Below, piece after piece: positions 60,180-60,949 of a stretch of 64,000 nucleotides of DNA. This DNA is from Vicinamibacterales bacterium. Its GTDB lineage: Bacteria > Acidobacteriota > Vicinamibacteria > Vicinamibacterales > JAMQPK01. Under the pieces are notes generated by a model. The model worked only from the letters and a program-made list of their open reading frames with translations. It ran no database searches and was not told the origin of the DNA. Numbering within the stretch: position 1 is the stretch's first letter; the number at the start of each line of letters is the position of its first letter. The stretch lies in contig DASZHO010000051.1 of NCBI GenBank assembly GCA_035937795.1, forward strand, positions 35,290-99,289, read 5' to 3'. The translations under genes were made by a program, and so were the position numbers.

Positions 60180-60876
60180 GCTGCGCGCCACGCGCATCCA
60201 CCCGCAATTTCTCATCCATCCAGAGGGCTCGGTGCTCATGGAGTCGGGCCGCACGCGGGTGATCTGCACGGCCAGCGTGGAAGACCGCGTCCCTCCGTTT
60301 TTGCGGAACAGCGGCAAAGGCTGGGTCACCGCCGAGTACGGCATGCTGCCGCGGGCGACGTCCACACGCACGCAGCGCGAGGCGTCGACGGGAAAGGTCG
60401 GCGGGCGCACGCAGGAGATCCAGCGGCTCATCGGCCGATCGCTGCGGTCGGTGATGAAGCTCGAGTTGCTGGGCGAGCGCACGGTATGGCTGGATTGCGA
60501 TGTGATCCAGGCCGACGGGGGCACGCGCACGGCGTCGATCACCGGCGCGTTCGTGGCGCTCGTGCTGGCTCTTCACTATCTGCGGGAGAAGGATCTGTTG
60601 CAGACGATGCCGGTCGTCGAGTATGTCGCGGCCACCAGCGTGGGGATCGTCGACGGCGCGCGGCTGCTCGATCTGGCCTATGAAGAAGACTCGAAGGCGG
60701 AAGTCGACATGAACATCGTGATGACGGGCGCTGGGAAGTTTATCGAGGTGCAGGGAACGGCAGAGGCGGCCCCCTTCGGCCGGGACGCGCTGCTGGAAAT
60801 GCTGGACCTCGGGCAGGCCGGAATCCAGAAGCTGATTGCGCTGCAGAAAGAGGCGGTGGGGCACATACTGAAGTAG
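60151..60876 (+). CDS. rph: Ribonuclease PH
   Basis: [16 protein letters not shown]...[20 protein letters not shown]...[19 protein letters not shown]...[19 protein letters not shown] is the canonical Rph sequence. Confidence 0.95.
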
Positions 60877-60949
60877 AAAGTTAAAAGTGGAAAGTTGAAA
60901 GTGGAAAGTTGAAAGTAGAAAGTAGAAAGTAGAAAGTTAAGAGTTGAAG
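60873..60949. repeat. GTNGAAA heptamer tandem array, 11 units, 77 nt with no cytosine
   Basis: gtagaaa gttaaaa gtggaaa gttgaaa gtggaaa gttgaaa gtagaaa gtagaaa gtagaaa gttaaga gttgaag. The first unit contains the rph TAG stop and the last contains the TTG start assigned to rdgB. Confidence 0.95.

Follow-up and report, generated by a model that had tools for sequence, protein, structure and literature searches.

The junction between rph (RNase PH) and rdgB (a Ham1-family dITP/XTP pyrophosphatase) in a Vicinamibacterales bacterium is occupied from end to end by a tandem array of 11 seven-nucleotide units. We conclude, with a probability of about 0.7, that this array is an ordinary intergenic heptanucleotide simple-sequence repeat (SSR) that grew in situ from the stop codon of rph and is passive. 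The array was found in a 64,000-nt stretch of contig DASZHO010000051.1 (assembly GCA_035937795.1, positions 35,290 to 99,289), called here the window; positions below are those of the window unless another locus is named. The array belongs to a known and common kind of sequence, the bacterial heptamer SSR. The more interesting consequence is local, in rdgB, where the repeat appears to have replaced the ancestral start codon and an N-terminal extension, and would now provide both a leader and a TTG start codon.

Anatomy of the array

The array proper (60873-60949, 77 nt) consists of 11 head-to-tail heptamers: GTAGAAA GTTAAAA GTGGAAA GTTGAAA GTGGAAA GTTGAAA GTAGAAA GTAGAAA GTAGAAA GTTAAGA GTTGAAG. 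Its units are imperfect, with six variants among the 11, and its base counts are A37, G24, T16 and C0. Tandem Repeats Finder (TRF) reported it at 60871-60948 with a period of 7, 11.1 copies and 81% matches, and again with a period of 14 (4.9 copies, 90% matches). The second row arises because the two-unit block GTGGAAAGTTGAAA is exactly duplicated and is then followed by three copies of GTAGAAA. The duplicated GTGGAAAGTTGAAA block bears the mark of slippage or duplication in the recent past, the three GTAGAAA units in a row also point to recent duplication, and the internal exact duplications (60887-60914 and 60915-60935) are together consistent with slippage. With at least three head-to-tail 7-nt copies in a non-coding position, the array is an intergenic heptanucleotide SSR.

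The first-pass annotation of this DNA had singled out the array as free of cytosine and as beginning at the rph stop codon, and both observations hold. The 83-nt C-free run that contains it is the longest in the window (G+C content of 64.4%; the runner-up is 46 nt) and also the longest across 645 kb of GC-rich related loci. Under a base-composition null, 2e-10 runs of such length are expected per window, but that null is unsuited to tandem repeats; the fair null is the amplification of one C-free unit. A random heptamer of the window's composition lacks C with p ~0.065 (our own arithmetic from base composition), and amplifying one such heptamer automatically yields a C-free array. The arrays of related genomes do hold C (e.g. 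AAGTGAC), so avoidance of C is not conserved.

The last sense codon of rph (AAG, 60871-60873) and its TAG stop make up the first unit of the array. Stop codons were also said to occur in all three frames within 25 nt, and they do: TAG at 60874, TAA at 60882 and TGA at 60896 lie in three different frames, because the stop-bearing unit repeats with a period of 7, which equals 1 modulo 3. The main properties of the array (freedom from C, stops in every frame, lack of structure) would thus all follow from its origin in a C-free, stop-bearing seed.

At the other end, the TTG start codon of rdgB (60944) sits within the last unit, GTTGAAG, as had been proposed. The Pfam domain Ham1p_like spans RdgB residues 4-194 and profile positions 1-185 of 186. 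Since the profile aligns from residue 4 of the TTG product, and with an in-frame TAA at 60938, TTG 60944 is the only workable start that gives a complete domain. The core of rdgB has a ratio of non-synonymous to synonymous substitution rates (dN/dS) of 0.12-0.23 against five relatives; it is a constrained gene under purifying selection, and presumably expressed. Rph shares 67-75% identity with proteins encoded in metagenome-assembled genomes of Acidobacteriota, including Vicinamibacterales and Vicinamibacteraceae, which points to a Vicinamibacteria-like acidobacterium as the source of the window; a look-up of the exact Rph sequence returned no record.

The junction in related genomes

In most of the 80 genomes fetched, rph and rdgB were adjacent, in agreement with the earlier description of the two as a conserved pair, and in most the spacer between them was short (0 to ~50 nt) and GC-rich. 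Closer relatives were then found through the RdgB protein and their contigs fetched, so that nine relatives' junctions could be compared (Table 1). Seven of the nine, with RdgB 73-86% identical and assembled independently, carried a purine-rich tract at the junction; six of these seven tracts were periodic, with about 2-7 units, and one was aperiodic. The two further relatives had no array. In every case the first unit was formed by the last lysine codon of rph and its stop codon (AAG-TAG/TGA/TAA). Both the number of units (0-11, the window having the longest array) and their sequence (AAGTGAN, GAAGTAA, GTAAAAA, GTNGAAA) varied at this orthologous site.

The array had been regarded as a precise insertion into a conserved junction. 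That view must be given up: the presence of shorter, variant arrays in relatives, each with a first unit formed by the rph lysine codon and stop, points to expansion in situ and not to insertion. The origin of an SSR is here directly readable, with a unit equal to a last codon plus stop and a series across relatives and window of 0, ~2-3, 3, 5, 6, 7 and 11 units. From the same comparison the array appears to predate the split of the compared lineages, and turnover at the junction, in both unit sequence and copy number, was faster than at synonymous sites (synonymous divergence, dS, of 0.37-1.4). Neither in the window nor in any fetched locus were arrays of at least three GTNRRRR units found outside the rph-rdgB junction; a dispersed element, such as a miniature inverted-repeat transposable element (MITE), was rejected on this confinement.

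Table 1. Features of the rph-rdgB junction in the window, and the corresponding junction in nine relatives (percentages are RdgB identities; ORF, open reading frame).
Feature	Position	Strand	Units or details	Evidence, or what follows the junction
rph (RNase PH)	60151-60876	+	241 aa	ORF; Pfam RNase_PH and RNase_PH_C; TAG stop 60874-60876
Cytosine-free run	60869-60951	+	83 nt, 78% purine	Base count
Heptanucleotide SSR	60871-60949	+	11 units of (AA)GTNGAAA	TRF; unit list; shorter orthologous arrays in relatives
Exact tandem duplication of a two-unit block	60887-60914	+	GTGGAAAGTTGAAA x2	Sequence reading; TRF period-14 row
Three identical units	60915-60935	+	GTAGAAA x3 (UAG-N4 x3 in RNA)	Sequence reading
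In-frame stop before rdgB	60938-60940	+	TAA in rdgB frame, blocks any start upstream of 60944	ORF limits
rdgB (Ham1-family dITP/XTP pyrophosphatase)	60944-61546	+	200 aa	ORF; Pfam Ham1p_like; homologue alignment
Junction of L084 (74%)			AAG-TGA-T AAGTGAC AAGTGAT AAGTGAC AAGTGAC GAGTGAT AAGTGAA (x7)	ATG
Junction of L165 (73%)			GAAGGTAA GAAGTAAA AGGTAAAA AGTAGAA AGTAAAA; ~6 units GTAAAAA/GTAGAAA	GTG
Junction of L164 (76%)			AAGTAAG TAGAAG GTAAAAG GTAGAAA GTAAAAA (5 units)	ATG
Junction of L082 (83%)			AAGTGAG AAGTAAAG AGATAAG AAGTAAAG AAGTAAG; ~5 units GAAGTAA	ATG
Junction of L163 (83%)			AAGTGAA AAGTGAA AAGTGAC, then ~30 nt mixed sequence	ATG
Junction of L166 (79%)			2-3 units	GTG
Junction of L081 (86%)			36-nt spacer, purine-rich, aperiodic	ATG
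Junctions of L083 and L167 (74%)			Array absent	Stop/start overlap (TAGTG)

Loss of the RdgB N-terminal extension

Most of the closest RdgB homologues were 234-246 aa long, compared with 200 aa in the window. The difference lies in a conserved N-terminal extension, shared by the closest homologues (93%, 83%, 83%, 79% identical and so on), a basic segment of ~39 residues (MAKKxAxKxDxRKGRDRRxGDRRKxARxGGxAKRNAPPE) followed by VLLVATxN. Between relatives the extension had a ratio of non-synonymous to synonymous differences (pN/pS) of 0.19-0.42, so it is evidently translated and weakly constrained. It contains no Pfam domain and is specific to the clade (proteins P0001 and P0003-P0029; L082 at 3001-3117, L163, L164, L165, L166 and L084), and its internal DRRxG repeat varies in copy number, with an extra copy in P0007.

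No trace of the extension was present at rdgB in the window, and a tblastn search of the whole window returned only low-complexity noise. Homology to the relatives is regained exactly at GTC-CTG-CTG (Val-Leu-Leu), which directly follows the last unit, GTTGAAG. Of the homologues, P0001 is the nearest (93%); it keeps the extension and has a 64-nt gap between rph and the rdgB call, and its contig, like that of P0006, carries the gene pair. L081 independently lost the interior of its extension while retaining ATG-GCG-AAG-AAA, and several other homologues also lack it. The extension has disappeared several times over in separate events, one of them in the window. The first-pass annotation had named absence of the array, or its variation without effect, in close relatives, together with a different start for rdgB, as grounds for abandoning its reading of the element. 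At the level of sequence, both are found in the relatives: the array is variable or missing, and rdgB starts at the ATG or GTG of the extension.

Proposed order of events

The most economical history would run from a short array followed by an ATG and extension, through expansion of the array, to a deletion and recruitment of the TTG. In more detail, the seed would have been the heptamer made by the last rph codon and the stop (AAG-TAG-A), which would have grown by repeated tandem duplication, through either slipped-strand replication or unequal exchange. The ancestor of the sub-clade would already have carried a short array and then the ATG and basic N-terminal extension of RdgB. In the lineage of the window the array would have reached its greatest length, 11 units. 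A deletion that began inside the array and reached as far as the extension's end would next have removed the ATG and the ~115-nt extension, fusing the array to the Ham1 core; finally, the TTG of a GTTGAAR unit would have been recruited as the start codon of rdgB. If so, the locus is a concrete case of an SSR remodelling the 5' end of a gene, with an extension lost and a repeat-borne TTG recruited in its stead.

Upstream of rph, on the same strand and overlapping or abutting, lie genes for an Amidase_3 protein and a GerM-domain protein, and this order recurs in relatives. For these reasons the amidase, GerM, rph and rdgB genes would be co-transcribed as an operon. The array would then be transcribed as an intercistronic spacer and would now form an open, purine-rich 5' leader of rdgB; transcription within the operon, with the array acting as the rdgB leader, is the most likely arrangement. 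Since a C-free spacer would load Rho poorly, this untranslated segment would be expected to exert no polarity on rdgB. The process of slippage, the co-transcription, the use of the TTG, and a lack of dedicated function beyond that of a tolerated leader are all what we infer from these data.

Another repeat is coding: at 58098-58133 a perfect 9-nt repeat, GTTGAGCGG, is present in four copies and encodes (LSG)4, an in-frame coding SSR near the N-terminus of the Amidase_3/Cu_amine_oxidN1 protein (57991-59592).

Several points weigh against a purely passive origin by slippage. The purine-rich tract persists at the junction across lineages at or close to saturation of their synonymous sites (dS up to ~1.4), and this persistence could reflect selection, for an open leader for example, and not mere mutational persistence. 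The strong preference for a period of 7 over 6 and 8, described below, is unexplained by generic slippage. The use of the TTG and the co-transcription were both deduced from sequence, and the array may have grown before or after the extension was lost.

Alternative explanations

The alternative to be taken most seriously is selection on the array for a part in translation initiation, as an A/G-rich leader without structure that gives ribosomes a standby or loading site for rdgB. Such a leader might work through ribosomal protein S1 or through weak pairing of AGAAAG with the 3' tail of the 16S rRNA, and might offset the weak TTG and missing Shine-Dalgarno (SD) sequence or else let a 70S ribosome terminating at rph scan to rdgB. 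The predicted minimum free energy of the array RNA was 0 kcal/mol, as expected where the absence of C leaves no G-C pairs and few pairing options, and its 151-nt context folded worse than all 200 shuffles (z = +2.59), which would place the TTG in an open region. No GGAG, GAGG or AGGA core was present in 60869-60943; the nearest SD-like motifs to the TTG were AGAAAG, 7 nt upstream, and AAGAG, adjacent to it, the 16S rRNA 3' end itself lying outside the window. In the relatives, too, the leaders before the ATG were purine-rich and poor in SD motifs, and a translational role has been proposed for the TAACTGA repeats found directly upstream of starts in Beggiatoaceae (PMC4679880).

The comparative evidence runs the other way. 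Array length and unit vary freely among the relatives (0-11 units), two of them (L083 and L167) do without an array and instead have overlapping stop and start codons (TAGTG), more distant relatives have short GC-rich spacers, and those relatives with the extension initiate at its ATG or GTG and not within the array. Upstream regions with an SD, scanned crudely, showed nothing to suggest an extended SD of the AGAAAGGAGG type: among 81 roughly defined start regions it was not enriched upstream of GGAG cores. We therefore regard a selected initiation element as unlikely, and the modelled open structure as compatible with a possible role in initiation rather than a demonstration of one.

Other regulatory signals were sought around the junction. 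A search against Rfam gave no match across the whole window at gathering thresholds and none at E<=1 in 60700-61100, and the tRNA scan found nothing. Promoter-like sites of the sigma-70 type (-35/-10) and intrinsic-terminator-like sites both numbered zero in 59500-62000.

A broader proposal would hold that heptamer arrays in Vicinamibacteria-like Acidobacteriota, far from being mutational litter, form a selected class of sequences at the 3' flanks of genes or between cistrons. Their register would be fixed at 7 nt and recognised by a factor that binds RNA or associates with the ribosome; the array at rph-rdgB would have been kept there on that account and co-opted as the rdgB leader and start once the extension had been lost. 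This is speculative, and we consider it improbable.

Use of the array as a periodic platform for an RNA- or DNA-binding protein regulating rdgB or the operon is more doubtful still, and in our estimate very unlikely. The strict 7-nt register would suit such a protein, whether HutP-like or of the ribbon-helix-helix class, and the preference of the clade for a period of 7 could mirror a binding register. The ribbon-helix-helix protein omega of pSM19035 binds contiguous 7-bp heptads. In RNA, the three UAGAAAG units (60916-60936) have the HutP format of UAG plus a 4-nt spacer, which is a lead and not a test. The array resembles HutP sites in the regular spacing of UAG in an mRNA leader (UAG-N4 x3, here at 60916-60932). 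It differs from HutP and TRAP sites in that no terminator adjoins it, its spacing is not that of TRAP, and its units vary in relatives.

Against a binding platform, the orthologous units differ between relatives (based on TGA, TAA or TAG), the many heptamer arrays elsewhere in these genomes are built from unrelated units, which speaks against a single cognate protein, and no terminator or antiterminator adjoins the array (none found within 59500-62000). The Pfam content of the neighbouring genes gave no candidate for a binding-protein gene. HutP is known from Bacillota, and HutP- or TRAP-type binding proteins are not known outside that phylum. A TRAP site consists of 9-11 (G/U)AG triplets separated by 2-3 nt; with a spacing of 4 nt (period 7) and only 4 units containing UAG, the array was rejected as a TRAP-binding site.

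An assembly artefact is highly improbable: tandem repeats are prone to mis-assembly, but the array, at 77 nt, is shorter than a standard short read, is imperfect, is flanked by intact genes in correct register, and has orthologous counterparts in at least six independent assemblies (JGI, ENA, NCBI, Logan). The suggestion in the first-pass annotation that the polypurine strand could form H-DNA or a triplex affecting replication or transcription fares worst and is scarcely credible, since an intramolecular triplex needs a homopurine-homopyrimidine mirror repeat that runs uninterrupted for some 15 bp or more, and this strand, although 78% purine and without C, is interrupted by one or two T in every unit (16 in total), leaving no purine run longer than 6 nt.

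Comparison with known repeat systems

Heptameric SSRs are over-represented in many bacterial genomes, are intergenic, and often lie between the same genes in related strains, with extensive variation in length and sequence; a proposed cause is slippage of the polymerase (PMC4692102). One hypothesis for the preference for seven is that it mirrors the stretch of DNA that the polymerase holds while slipping (PMC4692102). Rehm et al. 2015 (PMC4692102) cite the observation of over-represented intergenic heptameric SSRs by Mrazek et al. 2007; examples are the GGGAATC repeats of Xanthomonas and the GGGGA(T/C)T repeats of Nostoc.

The array in the window, which we read as a passive SSR grown from the rph stop, shares with these repeats its head-to-tail 7-nt units, its intergenic position and the favouring of period 7 over neighbouring periods; some relatives' arrays also occur as inverted pairs. 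It differs in having a unit of A, G and T only that does not form G-quadruplexes, in being specific to one locus rather than genome-wide, and in its acidobacterial host. Unlike the known heptameric SSRs, it also extends over the stop codon of one gene and provides the start codon of the next.

The TAACTGA direct repeats of marine Beggiatoaceae (MacGregor 2015; PMC4679880), which have been proposed, so far without proof, to act post-transcriptionally or in translation, are likewise heptamers with stop triplets located immediately upstream of start codons, in the position of a ribosome-binding site. There, one unit occurs at 169 sites in 2-6 copies each, whereas here 11 copies occupy a single junction and the unit is demonstrably derived from the stop of the upstream gene. 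The short tandemly repeated repetitive (STRR) sequences of cyanobacteria (Calothrix/Anabaena), as outlined in PMC4692102, are also tandem heptamers in non-coding DNA to which no function is assigned; those described there comprise a few defined units at many loci in heterocystous cyanobacteria, so unit and phylum both differ from the present case. Membership of the TAACTGA or STRR families was rejected, given a unit of GTNGAAA and GTNRRRR arrays of at least three units only at the rph-rdgB junction.

Heptamer arrays in the clade

A TRF census for arrays of at least 3.5 copies was taken over the window and all fetched loci, 882 kb in total, a sample built around rph-rdgB loci rather than a complete genome. 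Period 7 predominated (n=52), compared with n=11 for period 6, n=4 for period 8, n=8 for period 9 and n=9 for period 3. By crude gene calls based on G+C content at third codon positions, 68 of 88 heptamer arrays were intergenic, and 40 of 84 began between -12 and +15 nt of a gene's stop codon. Their units were diverse, and some occurred as an array with an inverted array, forming hairpins of repeats.

A literature search found no report of heptamer repeats in Acidobacteria. The arrays of this clade extend the poorly understood excess of 7-nt repeats to soil Acidobacteriota, in which about half of the sampled arrays abut stop codons, and they offer manageable material for the question of why the period should be seven. 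As a general property of such arrays, a cassette of stops in all frames was rejected. A stop triplet was present in the coding-strand unit of 13 of the 40 arrays abutting a 3' end, against ~18% expected, and in that of the opposite strand in 6 of the 40; arrays overlapping the stop by construction account for most of the excess, and four are the rph-rdgB junction itself.

Two other arrays in the window also begin at stop codons. On the minus strand, (TGAGCCY) x5.7 (13347-13386) starts on the TGA stop of a Gluconate_2-dh3 subunit gene (13379-14056, minus strand) and ends ~20 nt before the SD and ATG of a GMC oxidoreductase gene, the same stop-seeded architecture as at rph-rdgB. At ~22384-22420, the units TAGGCTG TAGGCTC TCGGCTC TCGGCTC TAATCTC start on the TAG that ends the gene at 21004-22386, and GGGAG and an ATG at 22436 come after them.

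Around rph and rdgB in more distant relatives, different arrays were present. AGGGCTG x24.9 lies directly 3' of the rdgB stop in L093 (4583-4756), and GGGCCAC x4 lies upstream of an rdgB not adjoining rph in L168 (~930-965). Long arrays with inverted-copy hairpins occupy the rph-rdgB spacer in L005 (3724-3960, a 10-mer unit), L126 (~1260-1370, GGGAGTT) and L161.

Other repeats and biased tracts in the window

An imperfect hairpin of CTCAGGG-type heptamers (GACTCAGGGCTCAGGGCTC…GGCCCCGAGTCCTGAGTC) at 63233-63280 lies between a convergent DAO/Rieske gene and the minus-strand gene at 63290-63970, beyond the 59500-62000 range of the terminator scan, and may act as a terminator in both directions.

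The second-longest C-free tract (46 nt) falls within 52865-52923, where a purine-rich 15-mer, AAGTAAGAAGGANTG, is repeated three times. It overlaps a PseudoU_synth_2 gene at its 3' end (…SKKDGSKKE*) and abuts the stop of a convergent gene for a major facilitator superfamily transporter. This is the only other C-free purine tract in the window, and its 15-nt unit is unlike GTNGAAA.

Two further tracts are coding. A 21/42-nt tandem repeat at 10637-11201 (13.5 copies of 42 nt) lies inside the minus-strand ORF 10592-11530, the product of which is a heptad-repeat coiled-coil protein that matches only coiled-coil families (LPP and others). At 34605-34758, a 154-nt run without A on the plus strand encodes the Lys/Ala/Thr-rich, histone-H1-like C-terminal tail (…AKKTAAKQTTKKTAKKAAKKKTAKKTARPKPRKAARRRR*) of the minus-strand ORF 34601-35575.

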